A program made the position numbers and the translations under genes. Source: an uncultured Magnetovibrio sp. (GTDB lineage: Bacteria > Pseudomonadota > Alphaproteobacteria > Rhodospirillales > Magnetovibrionaceae). Taken from it: a stretch of 64,000 nt of DNA. A model generated the notes under the pieces. It did no database searches and was not told the DNA's origin. It saw only the letters and a program-made list of their open reading frames with translations. Location: positions 6,521 through 70,520 of the forward strand of contig CAYVHU010000014.1 of assembly GCA_964451415.1 (NCBI GenBank). The letters run 5' to 3'. Positions within the stretch are counted from its first letter, which is position 1, and the number at the start of each line of letters is the position of its first letter. This document shows, one piece after another, positions 8,730 to 30,220 of the stretch.

Positions 8730-9899
8730 ATGCCTGGTTTTGAAGTCTTCGGCGAAGAAGAACGCCAAGCCATTAACGAACTGTTCGATCTTAACGGCGG
8801 CATCTTGTTCGCCCACGGGTTTGACGCCATGCGTGCGGGTGTGTACCGCGTACGAGAATATGAACGCGCCTTTGCCGACACCATGGGGGCCGCGCACGGC
8901 CAGGCCGTGGCGTCCGGTACAGCGGCGATCAAGGTTGCGTTGAAGGCTTTGGGGGTGGGTCCCGGTGATGAAGTCATCACTCAGGCCTATACCTTCGTCG
9001 CCACCGCGGAAGCGATTTTTGAAACCGGGGCGACCCCGGTGATCGTCGATATTGACGAAACCTTGAACATGGACCCCGCCGCTTTGGAAGCCGCAATCAC
9101 GGACAAGACCAAGGTCATCGTACCGGTACACATGATGGGTGAAGGCGCGGATATGGACGCGGTGATGGCCATCGCCAAAAAGCACAATCTGCTGGTCATG
9201 GAAGATACCGCCCAGGCGCTGGGGGCGTCGATGAATGGCAGGCGTCTTGGCACCATCGGCCACATGGGGGCGTTCAGCACCGATGCCGGCAAGACGCTGA
9301 ACACCGGTGAAGGTGGCATGGTGCTGTCCAATGATGAGCAGCTTTACATCAACGCGCGTTCCTATCATGACCATGGTCATGAGTATTCGACCACCATCGG
9401 GCGTGGCGAAGAAGGCGCCTTGTGCCGTGGGTTCAACTACCGCATGACCGAACTTCACGCGGCCATCGGTCTGGTACAGCTTAAAAAACTCGACATGATC
9501 ATCAAGGCCCAGCGCGCCAACAAGGCCAAGATGATGACAGGCCTGAAGGATCTGGGCGTGCCGTTTCGCAAGTCGCTGGATCCCGCGGGCGACATCGGCG
9601 ACACCATCGTGTTCTACATGCCGGATCGTGCGCGGTGCGATAAATTCGTTACCGCCATGGGCGCGGCGGGTCTGGGCACCAAGAACCTGCCCGATGCCAT
9701 CCGCTGGCACTTTTCCAAGCACTGGGCGCACATGTTGAATGATCACCCGATCTATGGTGGCAAGCTTGATACGGCGTGGGAAAAGACCGCCGATATCCTG
9801 GAGCGCTCCGTCGCGCTGCCGGTGATGGTGAAAATGGACGACGAGCGCATTTCGTTTGTCTGTGAAACCCTCAACAAGATCGCTAAAGATATCTTGTGA
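8730..9899 (+). CDS. DegT/DnrJ/EryC1/StrS-family PLP-dependent sugar aminotransferase
   Basis: 'ASGTAAIKVALKALGVGPGDEVI', 'EDTAQALGA' and 'FSTDAGKTLNTGEGGMV' (PLP lysine context). Confidence 0.8.
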   Translation: MPGFEVFGEEERQAINELFDLNGGILFAHGFDAMRAGVYRVREYERAFADTMGAAHGQAVASGTAAIKVALKALGVGPGDEVITQAYTFVATAEAIFETGATPVIVDIDETLNMDPAALEAAITDKTKVIVPVHMMGEGADMDAVMAIAKKHNLLVMEDTAQALGASMNGRRLGTIGHMGAFSTDAGKTLNTGEGGMVLSNDEQLYINARSYHDHGHEYSTTIGRGEEGALCRGFNYRMTELHAAIGLVQLKKLDMIIKAQRANKAKMMTGLKDLGVPFRKSLDPAGDIGDTIVFYMPDRARCDKFVTAMGAAGLGTKNLPDAIRWHFSKHWAHMLNDHPIYGGKLDTAWEKTADILERSVALPVMVKMDDERISFVCETLNKIAKDIL

Positions 9900-10654
9900 G
9901 CCTGCCCGTAAAACTTCTGGCGATCGTTCCTGCGCGCGGTGGCTCCAAGGGCATTACGGGCAAAAATCTTGCCCGGGTGGGCGGGCGTTCACTGGTCGTG
10001 CGCGCGTTGGATGCTGCAAGGCGGGCAAAGGCTGTGAGTGACGTTTTTGTCACCACTGACGACGATGCCATCGCCCTTGAGTGTGAAAGGGCGGGCGTGT
10101 CGGTTGGGTATCGTCGACCGGCGCATCTGGCGGGTGACGAGACGGGCATGATGGAGGTGGTTCTGGACGCGCTCGATCATTATAAGGGCGAGCATGGTCA
10201 GGATCCCGAGGTCATCGTATTGTTGCAGCCGACCTGTCCGTTTCGCTGTGCAGAGGATGTTGACGGGGCGTGGGGTGTGCTGTGTGACGGCGGTTTCGAG
10301 ACCGTGGTCTCGGTTCATGAAATGCGCGAAAGTCCGTACGAGTGCCTACGTGAAAATGCCGAAGGCTACCGCATGTTGGCCCAATCCGCTGGTGCGGTGC
10401 GTCGTCAGGACTATCAAGAAGACTTTTATTTTATCAACGGGGCCGTTTATATGGCGCGTAGCGAGTATGTGCGCCGTGAAAAGGTTTTGTTCAAGGAAGG
10501 CGAAAGCGGTCTGTTTCATATGGATCCGCTGTACGGTATCGACATTGACCAGCCCGGGGATTTGCTTATGGCCCAGGCATTGGCCAATCATCCTGAGTTT
10601 ATAGACCGACTTTATCCCGAGGATCCTCATGCCCATCTCACCGACGTATCTTAA
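9896..10654 (+). CDS. acylneuraminate cytidylyltransferase family (CMP-NulO synthetase, NeuA/LegF-like)
   Basis: 'LLAIVPARGGSKGITGKNLARVGGRSLV', 'LLQPTCPFR' and 'RRQDYQEDFYFINGAVYM' are CTP_transf_3 hallmarks. Confidence 0.8.
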   Translation: MSLPVKLLAIVPARGGSKGITGKNLARVGGRSLVVRALDAARRAKAVSDVFVTTDDDAIALECERAGVSVGYRRPAHLAGDETGMMEVVLDALDHYKGEHGQDPEVIVLLQPTCPFRCAEDVDGAWGVLCDGGFETVVSVHEMRESPYECLRENAEGYRMLAQSAGAVRRQDYQEDFYFINGAVYMARSEYVRREKVLFKEGESGLFHMDPLYGIDIDQPGDLLMAQALANHPEFIDRLYPEDPHAHLTDVS

Positions 10655-12951: not shown

Positions 12952-14115
12952 ATGCGCAAGATTTGCGTTTTTACCGGTACGCGCGCGGAATACGGTCTGT
13001 TGTACTGGACCATGCGACAGGTTCAAGACGATCTGGATTTGCAGTTGCAAATTCTGGTCAGCGGGGCGCACCTGTCGGAACGTCTGGGCGCGACCTACCG
13101 GCAGATCGAGGCCGACGGTTTTGTTGTTGATGCCAAAGTGCCGATGAATTTGGAAGACGACAGCGACGCCGCCCTTGCCGTTGCCATGGGACAGGAACTT
13201 GCGGGTGTGGCGCGGGTTCTGGATGAATTGAAGCCCGATATCCTGGTGCTTTTGGGGGATCGCTACGAAACGTTTACGGCGGCAACGGCAGCCATGATGC
13301 TGCGCATTCCCATTGCGCATATTCATGGTGGTGAAGTGACCGAGGGGGCCCTGGATGATGCCATGCGTCACGGCATCACCAAGATGGCGCATCTGCATTT
13401 TACGGCGGCTGAGCCCTATCGCCAACGGGTCATCCAGCTTGGTGAAAACCCGGATCGTGTATTTAACGTTGGCGCACCGGGGCTGGAAGCCATTACCCGC
13501 ACGCCACTCATGAACCGGGAAGATCTGGCGCAAGATTTGGGGTTTTTCCTGGATGGCAGCGTGTTTGTGGTGACTTATCACCCCGAAACTCTGGGTAAAG
13601 TGGACGCGTCGAGCGGCATTGAAGACCTGTTGCAGGCCCTGAACCTGTTTCCTGAAGCGCGGATCATCCTTACCAAGGCGAACGCGGACAGCCAGGGGCG
13701 TGTCGTTAATGACCGGTTGGAGACCTACGCCGAACGCAACAAGGATCGTGTTTTCCTTAGCGCCTCCCTGGGCCAGCGCCGCTATTATTCTGCCGTTGCT
13801 CTGGCGGATGTGGTGATCGGCAATTCGTCCAGCGGCATTATCGAGGCGCCAGCACTGGGGACGCCTAGCGTCAACATCGGCGATCGGCAGAAGGGGCGCT
13901 TGCGCGCCGCATCGGTTGTGGATTGCGCCGAAAGCGCCAGTGCCATTGCAACCGCCATCGACGAAGCGTTGCACCGGGATCACCAAATTTCGGTCAATCC
14001 CTACGGCACAGGCGAGACGTCCAGCAAAATCATCACGGTGCTCAAGGCGTTTTTAAGGGCGCCGAGCGTGTCAAAAACATTCTTCGATCAGTCTGCGTAT
14101 CCATCAAAATCTTGA
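12952..14115 (+). CDS. hydrolysing UDP/GDP-N-acetylhexosamine 2-epimerase (NeuC/LegG family)
   Basis: 'MRKICVFTGTRAEYGLLYW', 'LGDRYETFTAATAAMMLRIPIAHIHGGE' and 'GNSSSGIIEAPALGTPSVNIGDRQKGR'. ATG 12952 lies 6 nt after the upstream stop. The track's longer start (12814) overlaps the previous gene. Confidence 0.85.
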   Translation: MRKICVFTGTRAEYGLLYWTMRQVQDDLDLQLQILVSGAHLSERLGATYRQIEADGFVVDAKVPMNLEDDSDAALAVAMGQELAGVARVLDELKPDILVLLGDRYETFTAATAAMMLRIPIAHIHGGEVTEGALDDAMRHGITKMAHLHFTAAEPYRQRVIQLGENPDRVFNVGAPGLEAITRTPLMNREDLAQDLGFFLDGSVFVVTYHPETLGKVDASSGIEDLLQALNLFPEARIILTKANADSQGRVVNDRLETYAERNKDRVFLSASLGQRRYYSAVALADVVIGNSSSGIIEAPALGTPSVNIGDRQKGRLRAASVVDCAESASAIATAIDEALHRDHQISVNPYGTGETSSKIITVLKAFLRAPSVSKTFFDQSAYPSKS

Positions 14116-14201
14116 TACACAGGATAATGGGAATGGATTTTTGTCTTCGATGGTGATGAACGCGATCTTTAAAGAACAATTTTCACGGTATTTGCCCAAG
14201 C

Positions 14202-15476
14202 ATGCATAAACGTTATTTTATTTTACATGGGAATATATTCTCCCAGCGTGATTGGGAACGTTTCGGGTGTGATTTCTTCCTTCAGCGCGGTTATGACGTT
14301 ATCCCCGTGGAACTGGTCGAGTTGCTGAGTCCCGGAACGTATTCTCAAATGACGAAAGGTACGTTCACGTCTAGGCAAAATGTTGTGCGCATCAATACCG
14401 AACAGGAAATGGATGAACTGGTGACGCATTTCGGCCCTGCGGACTTTGTACTTATGGCCTTTTACCTTAATGCGAAATCGGCCTTCGTGTTTCGAATTCT
14501 CACAAAATATAAGATTGACTATATGTCTTTGACCATCGGAGGAATTCCGACGAATGACTTCCGGAACTTTCGTAGTGCGCTCAACTTGAAAGAGTACCTT
14601 AAGTTTAAATATATGACGGTGAAGACGAAGGCATATTTGCTTAAACGGTATGTTTGGACGATGTTTGCTGATGGCGTGGGGTGGGTGTTTTTGCGCCCGC
14701 CACGTTGGTGGATGCGTGCGGGACGTTATCATAACGCGCTCAGCGCTGTTGCGCCCAAGCCTTGGAAGGCCGAGCTTATCTCCGTTCGTTCATTTGACAT
14801 GCAAGTGATTGATGCCGTTCAAAATCAAAATAAAAAAGAAGGCGAAATCTTCGAGAAGCCATATGCTGTTTTAATTGATGATGATTTTTTAGATCATCCG
14901 GATTTTATATATATGGGCATAAACCGTCCTGTGACAAAAGAACGGTTTAGCTGCGCCATGCAGTCGTTTATTGCAAAACTTGAAAAGGATCTAAGGCTGC
15001 GCGTTGTTGTCGCCGGGCACCCCAAGGCCTTGCCTGAAAATGCGTCCATTGTTTATGGGGCGTACCCGTTCATTCAAGATAGGACGGCAGAACTTGTCGC
15101 ACACAGCGAACTGGTCGTTGTGTGTTGCAGTACGGCGCTTTCGTTTGCCGTTCGTTTGCGTAAACCTGTGATTGTCATCACGACCGACGAAATCGAACGA
15201 AATAGATTTTACGGTGGTTTCGTTGCTAACATGTCGAGCTGGTTAGGTTTGCGTCGTACGAATATTGATCGTCTAAAAGCGCATGATTCGTTGGTGATGC
15301 CCGTGGTTGATCAGCGCTGCTACGAGAGCTATGAACAAAATTTTTTGGCGGAGAAGGGGGTTGGTTCGCATTCAATCTGGGAAGAAGCCGCACGCCATTT
15401 TGAGGCGCATATTTCAAAACGTGCATCGGACTCCATAAAAAGACGTAAAAATCCGGAGCTTAAAATTGAGAAATAA
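14202..15476 (+). CDS. hypothetical protein, possibly a GT-B-like glycosyl/NulO or polyol-phosphate transferase
   Basis: 424-aa ORF at the start of a visibly AT-richer block. C-terminal half 'RVVVAGHPKALP...TAELVAHSELVVVCCSTALSFAVRLRKPVIVI' resembles the HP-motif / nucleotide-sugar-binding half of GT-B enzymes. There is no closer match I can assert. Confidence 0.45.
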   Translation: MHKRYFILHGNIFSQRDWERFGCDFFLQRGYDVIPVELVELLSPGTYSQMTKGTFTSRQNVVRINTEQEMDELVTHFGPADFVLMAFYLNAKSAFVFRILTKYKIDYMSLTIGGIPTNDFRNFRSALNLKEYLKFKYMTVKTKAYLLKRYVWTMFADGVGWVFLRPPRWWMRAGRYHNALSAVAPKPWKAELISVRSFDMQVIDAVQNQNKKEGEIFEKPYAVLIDDDFLDHPDFIYMGINRPVTKERFSCAMQSFIAKLEKDLRLRVVVAGHPKALPENASIVYGAYPFIQDRTAELVAHSELVVVCCSTALSFAVRLRKPVIVITTDEIERNRFYGGFVANMSSWLGLRRTNIDRLKAHDSLVMPVVDQRCYESYEQNFLAEKGVGSHSIWEEAARHFEAHISKRASDSIKRRKNPELKIEK

Positions 15477-16443
15477 TCCCTTTCAATCTATCTATGACGC
15501 CTGCAATCAGGGCAATTCCATGGACAAGTTTAAAGAATTGCCGCCGTTTCCACGGCTTATTGATATTGAGGCGACCAATGCATGCAACTTCAGTTGTTTG
15601 ATGTGTCCGACCGGAAACCGTTCAATGACCCGAAAGACCGGTATGATGGAGCCGGCGGTTTTTGACAAGATTCTTGATGAATGCGCCCAGTGGAATTGTG
15701 CGTTGCGTTGGGTGCAATGGGGCGAAAACGTTATGCACCCGGACTTGCTTGATCATATTTCCGCAGCACATGAGCGAGGTGTTCTTACGCATTTGAACAC
15801 CAACGGCAGCAAGTTGGACGCAGAGGCAGTTGAACGTTTGATTTCGACGGGCCTTGATTCCATCAAATTTTCTTTCCAGGGTGTGGATCAAAACAGTTAC
15901 GCAGAGATGCGCAACAAGGACTTCTTTGAAGAATTGATGGCTGTTATCGAGCAGTTTCAGAAGATCCGAGGAGATCGGGAGGCTCCGTATATTCACATTT
16001 CAACCTCCATTACATACGAAGGCCCGGAACTTGTGGCGGCTTTTGAGAAACGGGCAAGACAGATTGCTGATTATGTGTCTGTAGGACGAACGGTTTTTGA
16101 TAACCTTAATCTTGATGGTGTGCGTATGAAGCCTGAGGAGGTTGCACGTCTGCAGCGTCTCAAAGAACAAGAATCTGTCGTCAAGGTTCACCCTGAATGC
16201 CCGAAGGTCTTTGACAAGATGTCCATCTTTTGGGATGGGGCGGTGTCGGCTTGTTGCGGCGATGCCGATAAGGTGATGCTTATTGGGTCCGTCTCTGATA
16301 ACACGCTTAAGGACATTTGGCATTCAAATAGAATGAACGAATATCGCACGATATTGGCGGATATGCGTCATAATGAACTTGATTTATGCCGCAATTGCTA
16401 TGATTACCAGGACTTGCAGAAAACCGGATCTCAGGAATTTTAG
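15466..16443 (+). CDS. radical SAM protein with a SPASM/twitch-like C-terminal Cys-rich domain
   Basis: 'IEATNACNFSCLMCP' (CxxxCxxC). C-terminal 'CPKVFDKMSIFWDGAVSACCGD...LDLCRNC'. Confidence 0.8.
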   Translation: MRNNPFQSIYDACNQGNSMDKFKELPPFPRLIDIEATNACNFSCLMCPTGNRSMTRKTGMMEPAVFDKILDECAQWNCALRWVQWGENVMHPDLLDHISAAHERGVLTHLNTNGSKLDAEAVERLISTGLDSIKFSFQGVDQNSYAEMRNKDFFEELMAVIEQFQKIRGDREAPYIHISTSITYEGPELVAAFEKRARQIADYVSVGRTVFDNLNLDGVRMKPEEVARLQRLKEQESVVKVHPECPKVFDKMSIFWDGAVSACCGDADKVMLIGSVSDNTLKDIWHSNRMNEYRTILADMRHNELDLCRNCYDYQDLQKTGSQEF

Positions 16444-16449
16444 TAAATT

Positions 16450-17124
16450 ATGCCCGATTACCTGAATGTCATTTATGACGAGAAATCACATCCGTTTACC
16501 GACTATCCCTCACGGCTTGCCGCATATCTCTATCAAGCATTCAAGCTGAATGAACGAGATACAATGCTTGAGTTGGGAAGCGGTCGTGGCGAGATGTTGA
16601 AGTGCTTTTCCGATCTCGGGATGACGGTTAAAGGCGTTGACTTGTCCCAAGAGGCGCAAGTTTTATCACCTGGGCTGGAAATGTCGAGTTGCGATTTGGA
16701 AACGGAAAAACTTCCCTTTCCGGATAGCTGTTTTGATGTTGTCTTTAATAAATCTGTTCTTGAACATATTCGGAATACGGATCATCTTATCCGTGAAATA
16801 CGACGCGTTCTAAAACCGGGCGGGTTAATCCTGTGCATGGTTCCAGACTGGGAATCGAATTATAAAATTTTCTTTGATGACTATACCCATAAATCGCCGT
16901 TTACGACCGTGTCGCTTAATGATTTATTGCGTATCCATGATTTTGTAGATGTCCGTGTTTACAAATTCAGGCAATTGCCCATCGTTTGGCGGCATCCTTG
17001 GCTGAATTTTGTTTGCGCGTTGATGAGTCCATTTGTGCCGATCAGAACCAATATCGGGTTTTTGCGATGGTCGCGCGAATTGATGATTGTTGCGTGTGGT
17101 ACCCAGCGAGAATCTGAACAATGA
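16450..17124 (+). CDS. class I SAM-dependent methyltransferase
   Basis: 'MLELGSGRGEMLKCFSDLGMTVKGVDLS' (motif I, post-I acidic residue), 'FDVVFNKSVLEHI' and 'LKPGGLIL'. Confidence 0.8.
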   Translation: MPDYLNVIYDEKSHPFTDYPSRLAAYLYQAFKLNERDTMLELGSGRGEMLKCFSDLGMTVKGVDLSQEAQVLSPGLEMSSCDLETEKLPFPDSCFDVVFNKSVLEHIRNTDHLIREIRRVLKPGGLILCMVPDWESNYKIFFDDYTHKSPFTTVSLNDLLRIHDFVDVRVYKFRQLPIVWRHPWLNFVCALMSPFVPIRTNIGFLRWSRELMIVACGTQRESEQ

Positions 17125-19281
17125 GTAAGAACAGACCTGTAAAAATTTTTCTCGGTGATCTTGTGCACACGTGGGAAAAAGCCAGTACCTGGACCTTTCC
17201 ACTGAATATCGGTTTTATTAGCGCATACGCCAGCAAGATCTTGGGCGATGACGTCGAGTTTCGTCTGTTCAAACGTCCCGAAAAAATGATCGAAGCGCTT
17301 CGCAACGATCCCCCCGATGTGGTTGGCTTTTCCTATTATGTGTGGAATGCGAACCTGAACGGCCTTTTGTGCAAGATCGCAAAGGATGCCAATCCCCATG
17401 TGCTTAGCGTCGGTGGGGGGCCGAATTTCACCTCCATCAACACCACCGAAGAGAAGGCGGCCCAAGTCTTCCAGAACCAGCCTCAACTGGATGCGTATGT
17501 GGTAAACCAAGGTGAGCGCGGTTTTGTCGAACTGATGCGAGCATTTTTGGGTGCGCGGCGAGACGTTGTCAAGTTGCGTACTTTGACGGTTGATGGATGC
17601 GTTATCAATGGTGACGTGACGGTGGGGCGCATACAAATCGGCCCGCCCCTGGACGCAATGCGCGATTTGGAAGAGGTGCCATCGCCGTACCTGAGCGGTA
17701 TTTTGGATGAGTTCTTTGACGAACCCTTTGCCCCGATTTTGGAAACCAATCGCTCATGCCCATACCGCTGTACCTTTTGCGCGTGGGGGATTGGAACTGC
17801 GAAAATGGCGCGCTTTAGCGTAGAACGCGTGGTTGAGGAAATTGACTACATTGGCCAGCGGTGCAAGAACGCGGCGCAAATGTTTATTGCAGATGCCAAT
17901 TTCGGCATGCTTAAACGCGACACCGATATCGCACGTAACCTGAATAATTCACACAAAAAATACGGCTTTCCTGGCCATTTGGCGGTGCAGTGGCACAAGT
18001 CACGCCCCGATCTGATTATTTCAGCAGCGCGCGAGGTCAAAGATATCGCGCGCATCGGTGCATCGATGCAGTCTTTGCACCCCGAAACCCTGGAGGCCGT
18101 GAAGCGCAAAAACCTGCCGTTGGAACAGGTCAAGGATATGCTTGAAGAGTTGAGTGCCGACGGCGAGGAAATGCCACTGGTCTCAGAGCTGATTCTAGGG
18201 TTGCCCCTGGAAACACGGGAGTCGCATCTGGAAGCCAACCGCACCATGATCAACGCGGGTGCAGAGATGATCAATTATAATCTCTACCTTCTTCCGGGTA
18301 CAGAAATGGATAGCCAGGAAAGTCGCAAAAAGTATTTCAAGGAAACGGGCTGGCGGTTGATGGACAACGCGTTCGGCGTCTATGACGGGGTCAGGGTGTT
18401 TGAGGGCCAGGAAACGGTACAGGCAACCTCGACCATGTCACGTGACGAGTTGCGGGGCTTTCGCTTTTATCATTTCCTTCTGCAGTTCATGTGGGGGGGG
18501 GCGCTGGTACTATGACTACATCAATCTGTTTCACGGGTTGGGCACCCATCCTGTCGACCTGCTTGATCGGATCAGCCGGACTTTTCCGCGTGATGACAGT
18601 TCGTTGGGCCGGTTGTATCAGGACTTCAAGGCCGACCACGAACTGGAAACGTTCAAGACTTACGAAGACATGTGTGGATATTGGACTGAGGATGAAGCCC
18701 TGGAACGTTTGCGTACCGGCGGTTATGGTAAGCTGAACTTTGCCTATACATATAAAGTACTGTTGGAATGTCGTTCCGAATTCGACCAGTTTTTGTTGCA
18801 AACGGCGGAATGCATGATCAAAGAAAACGTGCCGGATGATGCGGTTCGGATTATGGATGTTACGCGCGACATTTTGAGTTTCGGTGCAGCATTACAGGTG
18901 AAACTCAACGAAGATATGTCTCTGGTTCCGGTCAACTGGGGCGATTTTGGTTATGATATCTTAAGGTGGCGCAATAACGATTATCAAGGCTTGCCCGCGC
19001 CCTGCGAAGGCAATGCAGTGCACTACAAATTCAGCGTGCCCGACGCACAGCACGAAAAACTGACGCGCCTGTTGTCTCAATACAAATCGCATAACAAAAA
19101 TTTGACGTTGCGCAAGATGAGCGAGTACATCAAGCCGCATGAATTTTTCTATACTGTTGAACCCGTGGATGAACTTTTCAATGACGCCAAGAATGAAAAA
19201 ATACCGATGGTGCCACAGTCGGGAACTCATGACAGTTGGTCTTATCTTAAGGGGCGTCAGTCTGGTGATGACCAACGCTAA
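17121..19281 (+). pseudogene. B12-binding-domain radical SAM enzyme, split by a +1 frameshift at a G9 tract (track ORFs 17121..18515 and 18382..19281)
   Basis: N-terminal cobalamin-binding-like domain ('DVVGFSYYVWNANLN...SVGGGPNF') and radical SAM core 'ILETNRSCPYRCTFCAWG'. Frame A ends 'FMWGGALVL*' at 18515. Frame B continues '..GGGRWYYDYINLFHGLG...' to 19281. Removing one G gives a single 719-aa ORF. Confidence 0.65.
18493..18501 (+). repeat. G9 homopolymer at the frameshift point of the B12-radical SAM gene
   Basis: catgtGGGGGGGGGcgctgg. The reading frames switch exactly here. Confidence 0.9.
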
Positions 19282-19486
19282 CGACCACCATATGACACTC
19301 TGATGCCGGGGGGCAGGGGCCGTCCACACCATCACCTCATCGAAGATGGTTTGCGGCGCGGGTCTCGGCTTTTCTGCAAGTGCGCGTTGATATATAATGG
19401 ATGGATGTGGATGCAATGCCAGTTCCTGGTAATAAATACAAATTCATGGTGAATAGTACCGACCATCTTGCAGGTATTCAGGTCGT

Positions 19487-20641
19487 TTGATGAGAATACT
19501 GATGGCCGACGCAAAGAATAGTGACTTTCGAGAGCTGATTTCGCCTTTTCTTCGTGGAAAAATTGCAGATTTGGAAGAAAAGTACGGCTCCGACAGCCTT
19601 GAGTTGCGAGCCATTACAAGACAGTACCTGCGCGATCCTTTGGAAAATATCATTCACTCCAGGGAACGACGTCGGCATTACGAATCCGAGGTTCATCTCA
19701 TGTTTGACGGCGAGCCCGTCGTTGGGGTTGAACGCTTGTACAGGCGAACCGTATTGATCGAACCCACTACGGTGTGTGCGGCGCATTGCCGATGGTGCTT
19801 GCGTGGTCAGTATCCCGTGAAAACCATGAGTAATGAACAAATTGTGCACGCGACACGCTACATTGGTTCCAACGATTTGCGCGACGATATTGATGAGGTG
19901 CTGATTACAGGTGGGGATCCGTTAATGTCACAGCCCATGCTGGCGTTGACGTTGAGTGAATTGCGCCGCAATGCGCCAAACGTGCGTACGGTACGTATCG
20001 GCAGCCGACTGATTTTTCAGGAACCGAAAAAAATAAATGCGGATATGATGGATATTTTTGGCCGGTATCCAGACTTCAAGTTCGAAGTTGGCGTGAACGT
20101 CAACCATCCCATCGAGTTTTGGCCGGAGTGTATCGATGCGGTTCATCGTCTGCAAGACGGGGGCTTTCGGATTTACAACCAGCATCCGCTTTTGCGTGGT
20201 GTAAACGATGATCTCGAAACCTTGATCGAATTGTACGATGCGATGCGCCACAATGGGATCGAAGCTCATTACCTGTTCCATGCCATACCCTTGCGTGGTA
20301 TGAGCCATCACCGCACGTCCTTGCGCCGCGGTGCGAAGTTGGCGGGACTGCTGTGTAGCAACGGCCACTTCTCGGGTCGGGTCAAACCGCGGTATGCGGT
20401 GTTGAGCGATATTGGCAAGATCGTAATATACGAAGGTACGATCGTTGATCGTTGCCGTTCCGACAATACGGTGCTGTTGCAGTCTGGGTATCGGTTGGAA
20501 GAGCGTCAACGCTGGGTGCCGTCGTGGCAGATGCCCGATAGCGTCGTGCTCGACAATGACGGCTACATGCGTACGCGCTACCAAGACGGAACCGACGAAG
20601 ATGAAACTGAGAGCGCCGTTCCCCTTTCATACAGCGCCTGA
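19487..20641 (+). CDS. KamA-family (lysine 2,3-aminomutase-like) radical SAM/PLP aminomutase
   Basis: 'LIEPTTVCAAHCRWCLRGQY' (KamA-type CxxxCxxC), 'EVLITGGDPLM', 'YNQHPLLRGVNDD' and 'HYLFHAIPLRG'. 384 aa. Confidence 0.8.
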   Translation: MMRILMADAKNSDFRELISPFLRGKIADLEEKYGSDSLELRAITRQYLRDPLENIIHSRERRRHYESEVHLMFDGEPVVGVERLYRRTVLIEPTTVCAAHCRWCLRGQYPVKTMSNEQIVHATRYIGSNDLRDDIDEVLITGGDPLMSQPMLALTLSELRRNAPNVRTVRIGSRLIFQEPKKINADMMDIFGRYPDFKFEVGVNVNHPIEFWPECIDAVHRLQDGGFRIYNQHPLLRGVNDDLETLIELYDAMRHNGIEAHYLFHAIPLRGMSHHRTSLRRGAKLAGLLCSNGHFSGRVKPRYAVLSDIGKIVIYEGTIVDRCRSDNTVLLQSGYRLEERQRWVPSWQMPDSVVLDNDGYMRTRYQDGTDEDETESAVPLSYSA

Positions 20642-20695
20642 TTCTTTGAAATAAACAGTTAAAAACAAAAACTCTCAGACAAGGAAACAACGGAT

Positions 20696-21694
20696 ATGGG
20701 CTCACTTGATGGCCGTAAGGTTCTTTTAACAGGTGGCACGGGTTCATTTGGCAAGGCCTTTGTGAAGAAGCTCTTGCAAGAGCACGACGTGAAAAGGTTG
20801 GTTGTGTATTCGCGCGATGAACTCAAGCAATTCGATATGGCACAGGATATTGACGCGCCGAACTTGCGTTATTTTATTGGCGACGTCAGGGATGGAAATC
20901 GTTTGGAACGGGCGTTTGACGGCATTGATACCGTCATCCACGCTGCTGCGTTGAAGCAGGTGGTCACGGCTGAGTACAATCCCATCGAATGCATCATGAC
21001 CAACATCCTGGGTGCTGAAAACGTAATTAACGCCGCGATCAACAAAGGGGTCAGGCATGTGATTGCCCTGTCTACGGACAAGGCTGTTAATCCGCTTAAT
21101 CTTTATGGTGCAACCAAGTTGTGTTCCGACAAACTTTTCGTTGCCGCCAACAACATGTCGGGCAAGAGTGGATGCAAGTTTTCGGTCGTGCGTTACGGCA
21201 ACGTTATCGCATCGCGCGGCAGTGTTGTGCCGGTGTTTCGCAAGCAAAAACAGACGGGAACGTTAACCATAACCGACCCGCGCATGACGCGTTTCTGGCT
21301 GACTTTGGAACAGGGTACAGATTTTGTCATCAAGTGTCTGCGGTTGATGCGTGGGGGAGAAGTTTTCATTCCAAAAATTCCGTCCATGCGTATTGCTGAT
21401 TTGGCGACGGCTATGGCGCCGCAGTGCAAGCAAAAAGTTATCGGCATTCGCCCCGGTGAGAAACTGCATGAAGTGTTAATCCCCGCCGATGAGGCGGGTT
21501 ACACGCTTGAATTCAAGGATTATTATATTATCAATCCCAGTATCCATATGTGGGAAGAAAATCGCACCCGGGTCTACGGTGGTGAAGACGGGCACGCGGT
21601 TTCCGAAAATTTTGAATATTCCAGTGACGCCAACACCCAGTGGATTAGCGGCCAGGAATTGGCCGATATGATTGAGGGTGAGGTTGAAACTTGA
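20696..21694 (+). CDS. pseB: UDP-N-acetylglucosamine 4,6-dehydratase (inverting), PseB/FlaA1 type
   Basis: 'KVLLTGGTGSFGKAFVKKLL', 'VIHAAALKQVVTAEYNPIECIMTNILGAENVINAAI', 'STDKAVNPLNLYGATKL' and 'VVRYGNVIASRGSVVP'. Confidence 0.88.
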   Translation: MGSLDGRKVLLTGGTGSFGKAFVKKLLQEHDVKRLVVYSRDELKQFDMAQDIDAPNLRYFIGDVRDGNRLERAFDGIDTVIHAAALKQVVTAEYNPIECIMTNILGAENVINAAINKGVRHVIALSTDKAVNPLNLYGATKLCSDKLFVAANNMSGKSGCKFSVVRYGNVIASRGSVVPVFRKQKQTGTLTITDPRMTRFWLTLEQGTDFVIKCLRLMRGGEVFIPKIPSMRIADLATAMAPQCKQKVIGIRPGEKLHEVLIPADEAGYTLEFKDYYIINPSIHMWEENRTRVYGGEDGHAVSENFEYSSDANTQWISGQELADMIEGEVET

Positions 21695-22890
21695 ACCCTC
21701 GTTTTTTGGGCTATGGTTCGCAGAGTCTTGATGAACGGGACATAGAGGCCGTCGTTGAGGTTCTGAAAAGCGATTTTTTGACGCAGGGACCGGCGGTTGC
21801 GCGTTTCGAAGCGGCATTGGCCGAACGCGTTGGCGCAAAATACGCGGTCGCGGTATCGAGTGGAACGGCGGCTCTGCACCTTGCGTGTCTGGCGTCGGGG
21901 ATGAAACCCGGCGATGTCGGCGTAACGTCGGCGTTGACGTTTGTCGCTTCGGCCAATGCGTTTCTCTATGCGCAGGGACGGGCGCTGCTGAGTGATATTG
22001 ATGCGCAAACCTTGTGCATGTCCAAAGATACCCTGGCCCGGGCTTTGACCGGAGAGTCGCCGTTGAAGGCCGTCACGCCCGTTCACTTTGCAGGATTGAG
22101 TGTAGGACTGTCCGCTATTCGCAAGCATGTTGGCAATGATGTTTCTATTATTGAAGATGCCTGTCACGCCCTGGGGGGGGACGATGAAGACGGCCTGCCT
22201 GTGGGGTGTTGCGCGCATTCCAATATGACCGTGTTTTCGTTTCATCCCGTCAAACCAATTACGACGGGCGAGGGCGGGGCAATCACGACCAACGACCCGT
22301 ATCTTCGCGATTTATTGCAACGGTTGCGTAGCCACGGTATCGAAAAAGAGCCTGAGCTGCTGCAATTGCGTGATCAGGGTGTTGATGAGGATTCCGGGGC
22401 CGTTTTTCCGTGGTACTACGAACAACAGATGCTGGGGTACAATTACCGCATGAGCGATATCCATGCCGCTCTGGGGCTGTCGCAGTTGGCGAAACTGGAC
22501 GGCTTTATCGCCCGTCGCCGCGAAATTGCCTTGTTTTACGACCGGAAGGTGTCCCGGCTTGCCCATGTGCGTGGCGTGCATAGCGCGCCGGAAATGCGCA
22601 AACGTTCCGGCCTGCACCTTTACGTTATTCGTTGTAATTACAAAGCCTTGGGCAAAACCCGTGAACGGGTCATGACGGAATTGAAGACACGCGGTATCGG
22701 CAGCCAGGTCCACTATATTCCGCTTTACCGCCAGCCTTTCCATATGAAGAGGGAAAAATGGTGTTCCGGGGACTTTCCCATATGCGAAGGCTACTACGCG
22801 GAGGCGCTCAGCATTCCTTTGTTTGCGTCCATGAGGGATGAGGATGTTGAGCGCGTAAGCCAGGCTCTTGATGAAGTCCTCACGTCTTGA
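21691..22890 (+). CDS. pseC: UDP-4-amino-4,6-dideoxy-N-acetyl-beta-L-altrosamine transaminase, PseC type
   Basis: 'YGSQSLDERDIEAVVEVLKSDFLTQGP', 'EDACHALGG' and 'FSFHPVKPITTGEGGAITTND'. Follows pseB with an overlapping junction. Confidence 0.82.
   Translation: MNPRFLGYGSQSLDERDIEAVVEVLKSDFLTQGPAVARFEAALAERVGAKYAVAVSSGTAALHLACLASGMKPGDVGVTSALTFVASANAFLYAQGRALLSDIDAQTLCMSKDTLARALTGESPLKAVTPVHFAGLSVGLSAIRKHVGNDVSIIEDACHALGGDDEDGLPVGCCAHSNMTVFSFHPVKPITTGEGGAITTNDPYLRDLLQRLRSHGIEKEPELLQLRDQGVDEDSGAVFPWYYEQQMLGYNYRMSDIHAALGLSQLAKLDGFIARRREIALFYDRKVSRLAHVRGVHSAPEMRKRSGLHLYVIRCNYKALGKTRERVMTELKTRGIGSQVHYIPLYRQPFHMKREKWCSGDFPICEGYYAEALSIPLFASMRDEDVERVSQALDEVLTS
22173..22180 (+). repeat. G8 homopolymer inside pseC (in frame)
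   Basis: gccctGGGGGGGGacgat encodes 'ALGGDD'. Confidence 0.9.
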
Positions 22891-22939
22891 ACAGTAAGTC
22901 CCATGTCGCCAAGCCGCTCTGTCAGGTGCAACAAATCCC

Positions 22940-24745
22940 ATGAATTTCATGCATGAAGCCCTCAATTATATTCGCGAGGAAGCGAAATTATTCGCGTTGT
23001 TCCTCGGCTTGTCGCTCTTTCTGGCTCTCAGCGAGGGCTTGAGCGTTTCCCTGCTCATTCCCATCCTCGGGGCAGGTGGTGGCGGGGATACATTGTCGTC
23101 ATTGCCGGTTATCGGGCATTTTTTCAGGCCTTTGATGCAAATGAACGTTTCGCAGCGCATTTTGACGGTATCGGTCTTGTTATCCGCAGTGCTTGTTGTC
23201 CGTGGAGGATTGCAGTATGCAACCCAAATCCTTAGTGCCACATTGCCCTTGCGGATTCAGCGCAGAATCATGACGCAGGTGTTCGATCTTTTGATGCATG
23301 TGCAGTTGAATTATTTGCATGGGAAAAAAATCGGTGAACTCAAAACCTTGATTCAGGAACATCCCGTTCGCGTGGCTACGGCTTTGAGGAGTATCGCGGA
23401 TATCGTTTCAAGCTTCATTTTAATTTTTATTTACATGCTGTTGATGATTGCCATTTCCTGGCAGATTACCATCGTGACGATAGGGTTTGTCGGGGTTCTG
23501 CTGCTGATTTTGCGCTGGATCAGTGCGCGGCGTCTTGTTTTTGCTGGAACCCAGTTGTCAAAGACCATGGACAGGATGCATGAGGTCTTTTTTGGGGCGA
23601 TTCAGGGGGTGAAGCTGGTGCGTCTGGCCAATGCCGAAACGCGGATGAGCGATGAGTTCACGACGGCTGTAAATAATTTTTACGCCGTGGATTTAAAGCG
23701 ATACCAGATCGGTGAATTGCAATCTCCACTGTTTATGACCCTGGCCGGGCTGTTTGTCTGTGCGATTTTGATATTCGGTGCCTTAACGCAAAGTGGTAGC
23801 GCTTGGGTAGTCTTGGCCTTGATGTTTATCATCAGCTTGTATCGGATGCTTGGTCCCGCCAGCCGGATCGTCACCGCGCAGGTGTCGATTCACGCCAACA
23901 AGGATTCGTTCCAAAGATTGAAAAGTTTGTTTGCCGAGGCGACGGCAATGCGCCAGAAAAACGGCACGATCCGGGCAAGCGGATTGAACACGGGCATTTG
24001 TTTTGAGGACGTTACCTTTTCGTATCCGGCAACGGATGTTCCCGCCGTCCGCAATCTTTCCTTGATTATACCAGTGGGTAAAATGGTTGCGTTGGTGGGG
24101 CCATCTGGCAGCGGCAAAAGTACCATAGTCGGATTGGTGGCGCGTTTGTTCGATCCTCAAAAAGGACGTATTATGATTGATGGCGAGGATCTCAAAGATC
24201 TTGAAATCGGATCCTGGCGCCGGCGCATCGGGACGGTGACGCAAGAAACCTTCCTGTTCAACGACACCATATACAATAACATTTCGTTCGGACGCGACGA
24301 TGTGCCTCTGTCCGAAGTGCGTATGGCGGCGAAGTGGGCGGCGGCCGACACTTTTATCGAAGTCCTTCCCGATGGGTATGAAACGCGGGTTGGTGAGCGT
24401 GGCGCACGCCTTTCAGGCGGCCAGGCCCAGCGCCTGGCTCTGGCGCGCGCCATTATCAACAATCCGGACTTTCTGATTCTGGATGAGGCCACCAGTCATC
24501 TGGATAGCCTGAATGAACAGGTGATTCAAAAAACAATACAAGCCATGCATGGCAAAAAAACAATCCTTGTTGTCGCGCATCGCCTATCAACCATCAGAAA
24601 TGCCGACATGATTGCCGTCGTGAAAAACGGCACTATCGTGGAAACGGGCGTACATGAGGACTTGATGCAAAAACCTAGTGTTTACAAACGTCTGTTCGAA
24701 ACCCAGAGTCTGGAACTGACCGATATCGACACGGCAACATCATGA
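22940..24745 (+). CDS. MsbA-like ABC exporter (fused permease + ATPase)
   Basis: Six-TM N-terminal half. 'LVGPSGSGKST' (Walker A), 'LSGGQAQRLALARA' (signature) and 'FLILDEATSHLD' (Walker B). Confidence 0.88.
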   Translation: MNFMHEALNYIREEAKLFALFLGLSLFLALSEGLSVSLLIPILGAGGGGDTLSSLPVIGHFFRPLMQMNVSQRILTVSVLLSAVLVVRGGLQYATQILSATLPLRIQRRIMTQVFDLLMHVQLNYLHGKKIGELKTLIQEHPVRVATALRSIADIVSSFILIFIYMLLMIAISWQITIVTIGFVGVLLLILRWISARRLVFAGTQLSKTMDRMHEVFFGAIQGVKLVRLANAETRMSDEFTTAVNNFYAVDLKRYQIGELQSPLFMTLAGLFVCAILIFGALTQSGSAWVVLALMFIISLYRMLGPASRIVTAQVSIHANKDSFQRLKSLFAEATAMRQKNGTIRASGLNTGICFEDVTFSYPATDVPAVRNLSLIIPVGKMVALVGPSGSGKSTIVGLVARLFDPQKGRIMIDGEDLKDLEIGSWRRRIGTVTQETFLFNDTIYNNISFGRDDVPLSEVRMAAKWAAADTFIEVLPDGYETRVGERGARLSGGQAQRLALARAIINNPDFLILDEATSHLDSLNEQVIQKTIQAMHGKKTILVVAHRLSTIRNADMIAVVKNGTIVETGVHEDLMQKPSVYKRLFETQSLELTDIDTATS

Positions 24746-25815
24746 CAAACGACTTCCCTCTTAACGTTTTGCTGGTTACCTTTCAAACGGGGTGCGCAAA
24801 TTCGATTGTTTTGATCGCCAAGGCGCTACGCCAGCGCGGCGCACGCATCCATGGCGTATGCGCGGGGGCTTGCGTTCGCGTGTTTGAAAGAGAAGCCGTT
24901 TCCCATCAGGTTCTGGACGTCAATGTGTCCGATGCGCAAATTGATGCGCTCCTCGATGCACAGGCGCCGGATCTGGTGATCACGGGTTCAAACGCCGCCA
25001 ATCGTTTTGAATTCAATTTTCGCCTAAGGGCGCGTCAGCGCGGCGTACAGGTGATAACGACCTTGGACTATTGGAGCGCCTACCAGGGACGTTTCCACGA
25101 TAACGAAACCGGTGTGACGTCGCTTCCGGATAAACTTCTGGTCACCGACGCGGTAATGCGCGATGAGTTGCGCAAGGCCGGTTTCAAGGATGCGCGGATC
25201 GAGATTGTCGGAAATCCGTATTTTGAACATTTGGCCCTTGAGGCGTCGGCGACAAGAAATCCGCGAATACGTGCGTACAAACGGATTTTGTTTACGTCCC
25301 AGCCAATCGCTGCTCTGTTTGGGACATCTTCGAAAAATCCTCGCTTTCTCGGCTACGAAGAAGGTGGCGTTTTTGACGCCCTGGTTGACGACCTCAAGGC
25401 CCGGCCCGAGTGCCGTCTATACGTCAAACCGCATCCCAGAGAAGATCTTACGGTGTGGAGGGGACGTTTGAAAAAAGCGAAAGCGGTAGAGAAACAGATT
25501 TTCTTCATTGGGGGGCGTGGTCGCTCCCTGGGCCTGTTGCAAGCGGCCGATGTCGTGGTTGGGATGACCAGCAATATGTTGCTGGAAGCACTCGTTGTCG
25601 GCACGGCGGCGGTATCGTTCCAACCCGACACGAACGGCAAATTTGAATTTTATGGGACTTCGTCGGGACTGGTACCGACGGCGCGCAAGATCGACAGGTT
25701 GCCCCCCTTGATTGATGAGGCCCTGACACGCAGCGCGACGACGGTACGCGAAAAGGTTGGTGTTTTATATAAAGGCGCCCTTGCGCGCTGCATTGACGTC
25801 ATAACGGCGAAATAA
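24742..25815 (+). CDS. hypothetical GT-B-like protein (candidate glycosyl/NulO transferase). Its 3' end is duplicated as a decayed remnant at 29969..30200.
   Basis: 'RILFTSQP...', 'LYVKPHPRED' and 'LLQAADVVVGMTSNMLLEALVVGTAAVSFQP' resemble the C-terminal half of GT-B transferases. 357 aa. Confidence 0.5.
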   Translation: MTNDFPLNVLLVTFQTGCANSIVLIAKALRQRGARIHGVCAGACVRVFEREAVSHQVLDVNVSDAQIDALLDAQAPDLVITGSNAANRFEFNFRLRARQRGVQVITTLDYWSAYQGRFHDNETGVTSLPDKLLVTDAVMRDELRKAGFKDARIEIVGNPYFEHLALEASATRNPRIRAYKRILFTSQPIAALFGTSSKNPRFLGYEEGGVFDALVDDLKARPECRLYVKPHPREDLTVWRGRLKKAKAVEKQIFFIGGRGRSLGLLQAADVVVGMTSNMLLEALVVGTAAVSFQPDTNGKFEFYGTSSGLVPTARKIDRLPPLIDEALTRSATTVREKVGVLYKGALARCIDVITAK

Positions 25816-25828
25816 CGAATAGCACGGG

Positions 25829-26620
25829 GTGAACGCGTTGAAAGTTGCAGCCATTATTGAAGCCCGCATGCGTTCTTCTCGCCTGCCGGGCAAGCTCATG
25901 TTGCCTATTGTGGAGAAGCCTGCTCTGGCGCATTTGTTCGAGCGGTTGAGGCGATGCAAAAAACTTGACGATATCATCCTTGCTACCACCGAAACGCCCT
26001 GCGACGTTGTGTTGGCGGATTTTGCGCAACGTCAGGACGTAAATTTCTTCCGTGGTAGCGAAAATGACGTCATGTCGCGGGTTTTATATGCTGCGCGTGA
26101 ATTTGATGTTGATGTCATCGTCGAGATCACCAGCGATTGCCCTTTGGTTGACACTGCCATGGTGGACGCGGCTATAGATCAGTTTTTTACTGGGAAACTG
26201 GAGTATTTATCCAACGTTATCAAGCGCACGTATCCGCGCGGTCTGGATGTCCAGATTTTCACACGCACGGCTCTTGAGCGGACGTTTGAGAGCACCGGCG
26301 ATCCGGTGGACCGGGAACATGTTTCGTTGTTTATTTACGAACACCCGGAAATTTTCAGACTGGGTCATTTCGGATGTGAAGGCACGCGGTTGGAGTGGCC
26401 AGAGCAAAGAATCACTCTGGACACGCCCGAGGATTATTTTGTGATCCGGTCCGTTTTTGAAAATCTTTATCCCGAAAATCCGGAATTCGGTTATGCGGAC
26501 ATCCATGGGTTTTTGCAAGAAAACCCTGATATTGCCGCGATAAACATGGAAATTGTCCAAAAGCGGGCGCGTGGTTACGATTTCACGCTCAAGGCCCGTC
26601 AGGCCTTGGGGTTGGAGTAG
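25829..26620 (+). CDS. SpsF-type cytidylyltransferase (CTP_transf_3 family; candidate CMP-pseudaminic acid synthetase), copy 1
   Basis: 'VAAIIEARMRSSRLPGKLMLPI', 'ITSDCPLVD' and 'TLDTPEDYFVIRSVFE'. Confidence 0.8.
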   Translation: MNALKVAAIIEARMRSSRLPGKLMLPIVEKPALAHLFERLRRCKKLDDIILATTETPCDVVLADFAQRQDVNFFRGSENDVMSRVLYAAREFDVDVIVEITSDCPLVDTAMVDAAIDQFFTGKLEYLSNVIKRTYPRGLDVQIFTRTALERTFESTGDPVDREHVSLFIYEHPEIFRLGHFGCEGTRLEWPEQRITLDTPEDYFVIRSVFENLYPENPEFGYADIHGFLQENPDIAAINMEIVQKRARGYDFTLKARQALGLE

Positions 26621-26639
26621 GTTGAGCGGGTATCATCGC

Positions 26640-26666
26640 CTGTAAGCGGATTGCCGGGGCTTACAG
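26640..26666 (+). other. stem-loop CTGTAAGC-N11-GCTTACAG just downstream of cytidylyltransferase copy 1 (conserved in copy 2)
   Basis: 8-bp perfect inverted repeat with no trailing T-run. The identical structure occurs at 31032..31058. Confidence 0.4.
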
Positions 26667-26917
26667 TTATGGCTGTCAGGAACATGGGGAACACGTCATG
26701 CGCTCTCGCCGATGAGGCCGAAGACGTTCAGTCAACGGCTGGAATGTATCGGCGTCAACGCCCGTCAGGGTGCGATATTGTCGTTTGGGAATAAGCCACT
26801 CGCTGTTACTTTAGCATCGGAAGGGCCTCCTGCGCCCTTCCTCCGTTGAATCACGGATCAGTTAACAAAGATTCACCAGACTTTTGCAACAGGTCTAATA
26901 ATTGGAAGTTTTTCGCT

Positions 26918-28069
26918 ATGATTAAGTACTGCACTCAATGCCTCTATCCCGAGACCAAACCGGATCTTCATATTGACGCCGAAGGCGTGTGTAGTGCCTG
27001 TCGCAGTTATGAAAAAAGAACAAAAATAAATTGGGAAGATCGTGCCCTGGATTTAGAGCGAATCCTTGAAAAATATCGGAATCGAGATGGTTCAAATTAT
27101 GATTGTATCGTTCCCGTAAGCGGTGGAAAAGATAGTACGTATCAAGTTCTAAAAGTTTTAGAATTCGGGTTAAACCCGCTGTGCGTAACAGGCACGACTT
27201 GTTCTTTATCTGAGATTGGGCGTCGAAATATAGAGAATTTAAAAAATCTCGGTGTGGACTATATCGAGGTCACGACCAATCCCATTGTACGAAGGAAAAT
27301 GAACCGTTTGTGCTTGCGCACGATCGGTGATATTTCCTGGCCGGAACACGTTAAAATCTTCACAATTCCCGTTCAGGTCGCTGTGAAATATAACGTTAAG
27401 CTCATCATCTGGGGGGAAAATCCTCAACATGAGTATGGCGGTCCTGCCGCTTCGCAACAAAGCAATGTGCTCGACCGGAATTGGTTGGAAGAGTTCGGTG
27501 GCCTTCTTGGTTTTCGCGTGACTGATTTTATCGATCAGGAAGGAATTGAAAAACGACACCTTATTCCTTTCACGTACCCGAGTGACAAGGAACTTCAGGC
27601 GGTGGGAGTAACGGGCCTGTTTCTCGGCTACTATGTTCCCTGGGATGGGTACACCAATGCCTTGTATGCGCAAGCCTACGGGTTCGAGACCTATCCAAAT
27701 GTCGTGGAAGGCTCTCTCGCAGACTATGAAAATTTAGATAATCACCATATGGGTATTCATGATTATTTTAAATATTTGAAGTTTGGCTTTGGTCGTGCGA
27801 GTGATATTGCATCCAACCATATTCGAAGGGGGCGTCTCCGTCGGGCAGATGCGCTCAATCTTATTAAACGACATGACGGTAAATTTCCGTGGACCTATCT
27901 TGGAAAACCTGTTGAGGACATCCTTTCGGAAATTTCGGTTCCCTTTGATGAATTCATTAAAATTTGCGATCAGTTTACGAACAAGAGATTGTTTGAATGC
28001 GATCATGACAACGTTTTGATCAAGGATAAGAACTTGAACTTGACCAAGACGAATGACGATAATTTGTAA
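26918..28069 (+). CDS. N-acetyl sugar amidotransferase (WbpG/PseA-like PP-loop ATP pyrophosphatase)
   Basis: N-terminal zinc-ribbon 'CTQCLYPETKPDL...GVCSACRSYE' and PP-loop 'CIVPVSGGKDSTYQ'. AT-rich gene. ATG 26918 chosen over the longer track start. Confidence 0.8.
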   Translation: MIKYCTQCLYPETKPDLHIDAEGVCSACRSYEKRTKINWEDRALDLERILEKYRNRDGSNYDCIVPVSGGKDSTYQVLKVLEFGLNPLCVTGTTCSLSEIGRRNIENLKNLGVDYIEVTTNPIVRRKMNRLCLRTIGDISWPEHVKIFTIPVQVAVKYNVKLIIWGENPQHEYGGPAASQQSNVLDRNWLEEFGGLLGFRVTDFIDQEGIEKRHLIPFTYPSDKELQAVGVTGLFLGYYVPWDGYTNALYAQAYGFETYPNVVEGSLADYENLDNHHMGIHDYFKYLKFGFGRASDIASNHIRRGRLRRADALNLIKRHDGKFPWTYLGKPVEDILSEISVPFDEFIKICDQFTNKRLFECDHDNVLIKDKNLNLTKTNDDNL

Positions 28070-28695
28070 TGCGTGTCGCCATCATAGATTATGGCCTTTG
28101 CAATTTAGGATCCGTATGCCGTGCCGTTGAAGTCAATGGCGGCTCGCCGTTCATAACGGCGGAGCCCAAGGAAGCGGTAACGGCCGACAAATTTATTTTG
28201 CCGGGCGTTGGTGCTTTTCCCGATGCGATGTCCAATCTTAATGCTTCTGGAATGAGCGAAGCCTTGCGCGAAATGGTGCTTGGTAAATCACGTCTCTTCC
28301 TTGGCGTGTGTCTTGGTATGCAACTTCTTGCGGACAGTTCGACGGAGGGGGGGCGAACTCCGGGTTTGGGTTGGGTGCCGGGGATCGTGAAAAAACTTGA
28401 ACCAGCAGAAGAAACACCTAAAAAAAGAGAGCGTGTGCCTCATGTCGGCTGGAATGAGGTTATTCCGAACGCCGCAAACCGATTATTTGCGAACATAGAC
28501 AAGGAAGCGGATTTTTATTTTGTTCACAGTTACCATTTCGATGTTTTATCGGAAGATCATGTTTTAGCGACAACGCCATATTGCAACGGTTTCGTGTCGG
28601 CGGTACAAAAAGACAATATTTTTGGGACGCAATTTCATCCCGAAAAAAGCCAAAAGAACGGTCTGAATTTGTTGGCTAATTTCCTTGCCCTTTAA
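28069..28695 (+). CDS. HisH-like glutamine amidotransferase subunit (glycan-locus paralog, WbuY-type)
   Basis: 'MRVAIIDYGLCNLGSVCRAV', 'ILPGVGAFPDAM', 'FLGVCLGMQLL' (catalytic Cys) and 'FGTQFHPEKS'. Confidence 0.85.
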   Translation: MRVAIIDYGLCNLGSVCRAVEVNGGSPFITAEPKEAVTADKFILPGVGAFPDAMSNLNASGMSEALREMVLGKSRLFLGVCLGMQLLADSSTEGGRTPGLGWVPGIVKKLEPAEETPKKRERVPHVGWNEVIPNAANRLFANIDKEADFYFVHSYHFDVLSEDHVLATTPYCNGFVSAVQKDNIFGTQFHPEKSQKNGLNLLANFLAL

Positions 28696-28697
28696 CA

Positions 28698-30200: not shown

Positions 30201-30220
30201 GAAATAACGAATAGTACGGG

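Follow-up and report, generated by a model that had tools for sequence, protein, structure and literature searches.

A frame-disrupting G9 tract in a predicted TokK-like radical SAM methylase gene of a nonulosonic acid island

Does a run of nine guanines that interrupts a putative glycan-tailoring gene act as a reversible switch, or does it mark an ordinary mutation or a sequencing error? The question is raised by a stretch of 64,000 nucleotides (contig CAYVHU010000014.1, hereafter the window) from an uncultured Magnetovibrio sp., in which a gene of a nonulosonic acid (NulO) biosynthesis island, encoding an enzyme predicted to be a radical S-adenosylmethionine (SAM) protein that depends on cobalamin, is broken at such a run (G9). 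With moderate confidence, we favour a genuine +1 mutation of recent date, caused by strand slippage in a G8 run that arose by accident, which would inactivate a TokK-like NulO-tailoring methylase in the assembly consensus.

The G9 homopolymer lies exactly at 18493..18501 on the + strand of the window. No other homopolymer of the gene is as long, and none in the window is longer, a G9 at 5239 being its equal in length. The bases around the tract read TTC ATG TGG GGG GGG GCG CTG GTA CTA TGA, and the upstream open reading frame (ORF) ends with M457, W458, G459 and G460, followed by four out-of-frame residues (ALVL) and the TGA stop. The second ORF, of 299 amino acids (aa), occupies 18382..19281 (+); gene callers annotate here a 247-aa ORF starting at TTG 18538, which lacks a convincing ribosome-binding site. 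Removal of one G (G8) gives a single 719-aa protein reading ..FLLQFMWGGRWYYDYINLF.., and G11 gives a protein of 720 aa, with one additional Gly. The tract is an intragenic repeat whose length toggles the reading frame, G9 being out of frame and G8 and G11 in frame.

The repaired protein was searched against 5.8 billion protein clusters and matched 582 relatives, the full-length ones being single ORFs of ~680-715 aa. The best relative, P0001 (714 aa), shows 80% identity and covers 99% of the repaired protein. W458 does not vary across a family alignment of 118 full-length relatives, and at the junction the closest of these show FMWGGRWY(Y/F)D, the same as the repaired window protein, whose junction FMWGGRWYYDY is identical to that of the nearest intact homologues. 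Since single-ORF homologues of ~680-715 aa cross the junction, W458 is invariant and the nearest homologues share the motif, the alignment places the frame switch in the tract itself, in the interval from the Trp458 codon to the Arg461 codon. An earlier note on this DNA had described the 464-aa and 299-aa ORFs as halves of one B12-radical SAM gene, broken exactly at the G9 run and restored by G8 or G11; the homologues, the coordinates and the repaired junction bear this out. The sole match of the repaired protein among the GTDB representative genomes is a 53%-identical Rhodospirillaceae metagenome-assembled genome (MAG). When metagenomes were scanned with the family alignment, no relative exceeded 49% identity; these relatives served for a codon survey at the site and not for a strain-level comparison.

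With regard to the identity of the enzyme, the gene product is predicted to be a three-domain cobalamin radical SAM C-methylase resembling TokK and CysS, because the AlphaFold model of P0001 superposes on both structures and the equivalent of TokK W76 is aligned. The model has a predicted local distance difference test (pLDDT) value of 89 and a predicted template modelling (pTM) score of 0.89. Foldseek aligned it with TokK (7kdx) over ~720 alignment columns at template modelling (TM) scores of 0.72/0.77, and with CysS (9n1b) at 0.70/0.79. The phmmer alignment of P0001 with TokK reaches TokK residue 611; together with the Foldseek alignments, it reveals a TokK-type C-terminal domain. The family profile matched TokK with E=7.5e-71 (residues 20-469) and CysS with E=2.4e-51 among the solved structures, and TokK W76, the Trp under the corrin, aligns with an invariant Trp of the family (W73 in P0001, W75 in the window protein). 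The CxxxCxxC motif (C213/C217/C220) is invariant in the family alignment. The Radical_SAM domain (PF04055) scores 37.6 bits, above its cut-off of 29.5, and the B12-binding domain (PF02310) scores 30.4 bits, just under its cut-off of 32.1. The KedN5 subfamily model of methylcobalamin-dependent C-methyltransferases (NCBIfam NF033712) scores 197 bits against a cut-off of 700 and covers residues 25-399 only; judged by these profiles, the family of the disrupted enzyme is related to, but distinct from, the curated KedN5 subfamily. The family shares with TokK/ThnK (carbapenem) and CysS (cystobactamid; PDB 7kdx, 9n1b) the Rossmann cobalamin (Cbl) domain with a Trp under the corrin, the CxxxCxxC radical SAM core and a homologous C-terminal domain, with fold TM-scores of 0.70-0.79. 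In contrast, sequence identity to the window family is only 20-23%, and those enzymes belong to antibiotic biosynthesis, whereas the present one is found in a nonulosonic acid biosynthesis context. The substrate-binding Arg280 of TokK aligns to Ala, which argues for a different substrate. The presence nearby of legionaminic and pseudaminic acid (Leg/Pse) genes and of genes for a SPASM radical SAM protein, a methyltransferase and a KamA-like aminomutase only suggests a NulO side chain as candidate substrate; the biochemical role of the gene is one that we infer.

The break falls at the end of the helix comprising residues 445-457 (P0001 model), within an invariant motif (H451, M457, W458). The 464-aa product keeps the Cbl Rossmann and radical SAM domains and loses the whole C-terminal domain of ~260 aa. 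In TokK, the C-terminal domain contacts the substrate via Asn515 and Tyr652 (bioRxiv 10.1101/2021.07.10.451909). As this substrate-binding domain is lost, the C-methylation step of NulO side-chain tailoring would most likely be off, by analogy with TokK. No second lesion was found in the gene, and the invariant C-terminal residues of the family alignment are all kept. The C-terminal part is 48.0, 48.8, 46.9 and 41.5% identical to four outgroup proteins (mean ~46%), and that of the intact P0001 is 48.8, 48.4, 48.8 and 43.4% identical to the same proteins (mean ~47%). With no further lesion and a C-terminal similarity equal to that of P0001, the frameshift is therefore either recent, or reversible, or unreal. 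From this comparison we infer that it is recent.

The following course of events would account for the locus. The Trp-Gly-Gly motif happens, it appears, to be written TGG GGG GGG, which creates an incidental G8 homopolymer; slipped-strand mispairing would then have inserted one G, converting G8 into G9. Translation would halt four codons past the tract, giving a 464-aa product without the C-terminal domain, and C-methylation of the NulO side chain would go off. As G9 is intrinsically mutable, reversion to G8 would be possible.

Whether the G9 is real is the point on which this proposal depends first. That the organism is truly G8, with an intact gene and a miscalled extra G, is an unlikely explanation in our view. 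It would fit the prevalence of indel errors at homopolymers, the otherwise perfect gene with a repaired junction that matches the homologues exactly, and the metagenomic source of uncertain coverage. Six contigs carry the exact 464-aa protein (P0004) in their records. Those examined, three in number (Logan SRR6439370, Logan SRR6439372 and NCBI GCA_006243245.1), all show G9 and are 100% identical to the window across 5.0-7.4 kb, and the protein clusters of both half-ORFs are singletons. No in-frame version or identical full-length protein was present among the 5.8 billion protein clusters, and no G8, G10 or G11 form of this strain's gene was found in any assembly or protein record searched. Furthermore, exact k-mer assemblies with 5-14 kb at 100% identity probably imply low-error short reads. 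Two other long G tracts of the window serve as controls. The G9 in NeuB reads CTG GGG GGG GGC in frame and the NeuB Pfam match is continuous across it; the G8 in PseC reads CTG GGG GGG GAC in frame and the PseC equivalog match (6-397) runs in one stretch. That both are in frame argues against a general miscalling of long G runs. A sequencing error, the alternative raised in the earlier note, is thus disfavoured because the G9 recurs in separately assembled runs and in the NCBI assembly with 100% identical flanks and because control tracts of nine and eight Gs are in frame in the same window. The NeuB and PseC tracts are themselves additional slippage-prone sites within core NulO genes.

A second explanation, which the earlier note had put forward, is evolved phase variation of the Campylobacter type: selection would keep the poly-G as a reversible ON/OFF switch of a glycan-tailoring methylase, and the samples would have caught it OFF. 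We consider this improbable. The setting is suggestive, as a gene that tailors a surface glycan (NulO) belongs to the classic target class (PMC3068675), the gene is intact bar one base, G8 and G9 are one slippage step apart, and the island contains two further long G tracts, in NeuB and PseC. Long G runs are nevertheless not over-represented. Synonymous codons were shuffled within 53 coding sequences taken from the window, the broken gene being entered in its repaired form; three runs of G>=8 were observed against 1.28 +/- 1.09 expected (P=0.13), and one run of G>=9 against 0.27 expected (P=0.24). GGG makes up 22% of the Gly codons in the window coding sequences, and all intragenic G runs of at least seven encode Gly-Gly (Gly-Gly-Gly at 5239) and consist mostly or wholly of GGG codons. 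The tract is not retained in relatives either. The nearest orthologue (80% identity) interrupts it with GGC, reading TGG GGC GGG at the homologous site, and among 16 orthologue genes with available DNA the run length at this site is 2 in eight, 4 in six, 5 in one and 8 in one, so that 15 of the 16 have G<=5. The sole G8 orthologue, on L088 (62% identity), which counts in favour of a switch, reads TGG GGG GGG CGC in frame; its G8 is the predicted functional state and appears to illustrate how G8 can arise incidentally through synonymous change. No length variant was recorded on the three contigs or in the protein collection. A search of JGI metagenome contigs with the exact flanks and tract lengths of 4-16 also gave zero matches, and is hence uninformative on length variants. 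In addition, G8 is short for a high-rate switch. The features expected of a contingency locus, namely length polymorphism in assembly and protein records, over-representation of tracts and tract retention in orthologues, were thus not observed.

The poly-G contingency genes in the flagellin-glycosylation and capsule loci of C. jejuni (e.g. Cj1295; PMC3068675) resemble the window gene in that a poly-G lies in a gene decorating a glycan of the pseudaminic/legionaminic acid type and that the frameshift turns the gene off. In contrast, C. jejuni has ~30% GC, and its tracts are far above chance, present in many genes and polymorphic within cultures, whereas in the window the tract number fits codon usage, the closest orthologue has no tract and no polymorphism was found. 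The glpK 7C tract and other homopolymer indels of M. tuberculosis (PMC10334774, bioRxiv 10.1101/717272) also resemble the window gene: a single-base indel in a G/C run of 7-9 nt, within an otherwise intact gene of a genome that is not AT-rich, causes a loss of function that is reversible in principle. They differ in that recurrence and reversion are documented there over thousands of isolates, while the window gene is seen as G9 only, in one metagenomic population. These homopolymer phase variants of a high-GC bacterium (PMC10334774) favour phase variation to some extent and weaken the premise of the earlier note that such a device would be unusual in a GC-rich genome; the gene region itself, at a GC content of ~51% against 57-64% in its flanks, is not GC-rich.

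The evidence for a selected device is removed by the lack of tract excess, by the orthologues without the tract and by the failure to find a length variant, and an evolved Campylobacter-type device is not supported. Reversion is still allowed, any G9 run being mutable. Judged from the codons, the tract is probably an incidental way of writing the Trp-Gly-Gly motif, and the behaviour of the site is that of an accidental hot spot or a nascent pseudogene rather than of an evolved contingency locus. A more far-reaching proposal, in which a working ON/OFF switch of NulO side-chain C-methylation would form, together with the NeuB G9 and the PseC G8, a multi-gene 'phasotype' diversifying the cell-surface or flagellar glycan, e.g. 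against phage, seems distinctly improbable.

The least tenable explanation, which we regard as highly improbable, is that the G9 allele still yields a full-length enzyme, through either transcriptional slippage on the run or +1 ribosomal frameshifting on GGG GGG G, or that the two halves function as a split enzyme. In its favour, nine identical bases are a potential slippage site, a tRNA-Gly could presumably re-pair perfectly after a +1 shift on GGG-G, and gene callers predict the 247-aa downstream ORF. Against it, all 118 aligned homologues are single ORFs and the frameshift is thus not conserved, the RNA downstream has no more structure than shuffling would give (z=0.18), the 0-frame codon following the run is a common one (GCG), the shift site has neither a stop nor a rare codon, the TTG restart has no convincing ribosome-binding site, and the break lies at the end of a helix within an invariant motif. 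Programmed frameshifting was rejected on the grounds of the downstream RNA fold and the absence of the frameshift from homologues, and a functional two-subunit enzyme was rejected as unlikely on the grounds of the position of the break and the TTG start. Low-level transcriptional slippage on the G9 may be conceivable, but its programming is unsupported.

Several points nevertheless weigh against a simple recent mutation in an accidental run. All three G>=8 tracts fall in NulO genes inside 17 kb, which is suggestive but not statistically significant, and a gene that is intact except for one base is also what an OFF phase variant is expected to look like. The assemblies appear to stem from a single study (consecutive SRR numbers; VAPL/VAPM metagenomes) and are possibly near-replicates rather than independent populations. 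They give the consensus only, and a G8 minority may exist inside the population. A systematic, context-specific sequencing error may also be conceivable.

The coordinates of the disrupted gene, of the control tracts and of the neighbouring genes are collected in Table 1.

Table 1. Features of the disrupted gene and its surroundings in the window.
Feature	Position	Strand	Remarks
Entire disrupted gene, predicted TokK/CysS-like cobalamin-dependent radical SAM C-methyltransferase	17121..19281	+	719 aa if G8
Upstream ORF, 464 aa	17121..18515	+	residues 1-460 authentic; then ALVL out of frame, then stop
G9 homopolymer, +1 insertion site	18493..18501	+	probable in-frame ancestral state G8, TGG GGG GGG (Trp458-Gly459-Gly460)
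Premature TGA stop	18513..18515	+	12 nt after the tract
Rest of the gene, +1 frame, residues 461-719	18502..19281	+	helical/mixed C-terminal domain; family-invariant residues all intact
Control tract G9 in NeuB	5239..5247	+	in frame (Leu-Gly-Gly-Gly)
Control tract G8 in PseC	22173..22180	+	in frame (Leu-Gly-Gly)
Hypothetical protein, 424 aa	14202..15476	+	upstream co-conserved partner
SPASM radical SAM	15466..16443	+	upstream co-conserved partner
Class-I methyltransferase	16450..17124	+	upstream co-conserved partner
KamA-family (2,3-aminomutase-like) radical SAM	19487..20641	+	downstream; followed by PseB and PseC

All main island genes are encoded on the + strand. A legionaminic acid-type set comprises NeuB, a PglD-like acetyltransferase, a CBS-domain nucleotidyltransferase, an iron-type alcohol dehydrogenase (Fe-ADH), aminotransferases, a cytidylyltransferase, a dehydratase and a NeuC-type epimerase. 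The tailoring module follows the order 424-aa hypothetical protein, SPASM radical SAM, class-I methyltransferase, broken B12 radical SAM and KamA-like aminomutase. The pseudaminic acid set comprises PseB, PseC, an ABC exporter, a glycosyltransferase, cytidylyltransferases, HisH/HisF-like proteins, a GNAT protein and a second NeuB, and more sugar-modification genes come next. The reading of the region as a NulO locus stands, given the two NeuB, PseB, PseC, the NeuC-type epimerase and several cytidylyltransferases of the CMP-sugar synthetase type. No flagellin or Maf gene was recognised among the window genes, and a promoter and terminator scan around the gene, on the + strand, gave nothing over the shuffle expectation.

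The orthologues of the broken gene lie in comparable NulO loci, always adjoining a SPASM radical SAM gene and with a methyltransferase and a hypothetical protein of ~380-430 aa nearby. The corresponding modules occupy 9021..14124 in L004, 4971..10186 in L087, 3881..8930 in L088 and 4991..9448 in L089, compared with 14202..20641 in the window. The KamA-like aminomutase-type radical SAM gene is present in the modules of the window and of the P0003 contig. The tailoring module is apparently conserved and uncharacterised; a literature search linking radical SAM enzymes with legionaminic acid returned no relevant paper. A second B12-binding radical SAM gene (525 aa) directly precedes a second SPASM radical SAM gene (381 aa) at 42556..45297, where the next genes encode a HAD hydrolase and a 687-aa protein that lacks any Pfam match; this may be a second radical SAM tailoring pair of the island. 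Besides the two NeuB genes, there are four CTP_transf_3 (CMP-NulO synthetase-type) genes, at 9896..10654, 25829..26620, 30221..31012 and 38366..39112. In the last of these, the match is confined to the first 67 of the 217 profile positions; this copy is possibly degenerate or divergent.

Gene decay occurs elsewhere in the island, which we count in favour of loss of function. Two ORFs that overlap in different frames at 55926..57784 have the appearance of decayed remnants of an AsnB-like protein and a glycosyltransferase. The 225-aa ORF contains the GATase domain alone of the AsnB-like protein, and in the 402-aa ORF, Asn_synthase profile positions 86-307 are fused to part of a GT1 domain (positions 48-171). 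Directly upstream lie an AsnB that is intact (52913..54859) and a glycosyltransferase (54655..55923). As the AsnB-like fragment is 37% identical to the intact AsnB, it is an old paralogue and no recent duplicate.

The attribution to an alphaproteobacterial host agrees with the window AccA, which is 80-83% identical to Magnetovibrio/Rhodospirillaceae (MAG) proteins. Window DNA was matched in metagenome assemblies only, and the organism is, as far as these sequences indicate, an uncultured Magnetovibrio-like Rhodospirillales bacterium. The centre of the island (about 14000..45000) has 46-53% GC, with one 2-kb bin at 55%, and the flanks have 56-64%. GC skew is positive across the whole island. 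These GC patterns would fit a glycan island that is mosaic or was acquired horizontally and that lies on the leading strand. The head of the island (1447..4662) contains a XerC/D-type tyrosine recombinase, AccA, a MarR/winged helix-turn-helix regulator and a NusG paralogue (NusG N-terminal domain and KOW). A role as RfaH-like operon antiterminator is conceivable for the NusG paralogue, and any polarity from the premature stop would then be blunted.

If it is a recent mutation in an accidental G8 run, as we propose, the event is an ordinary homopolymer frameshift allele of a well-known kind, and 17121..19281 should be annotated as one disrupted gene rather than two. If mixed tract lengths were present in the reads, the locus would stand as a rare example of a phase-variable glycan in an environmental alphaproteobacterium, and a working switch would bring an environmental lineage of mid to high GC into the range of Campylobacter-style glycan phase variation. 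The more interesting question concerns the chemistry of the module, which the comparison of this natural knock-out allele with the intact, 80%-identical orthologue could help to assign.

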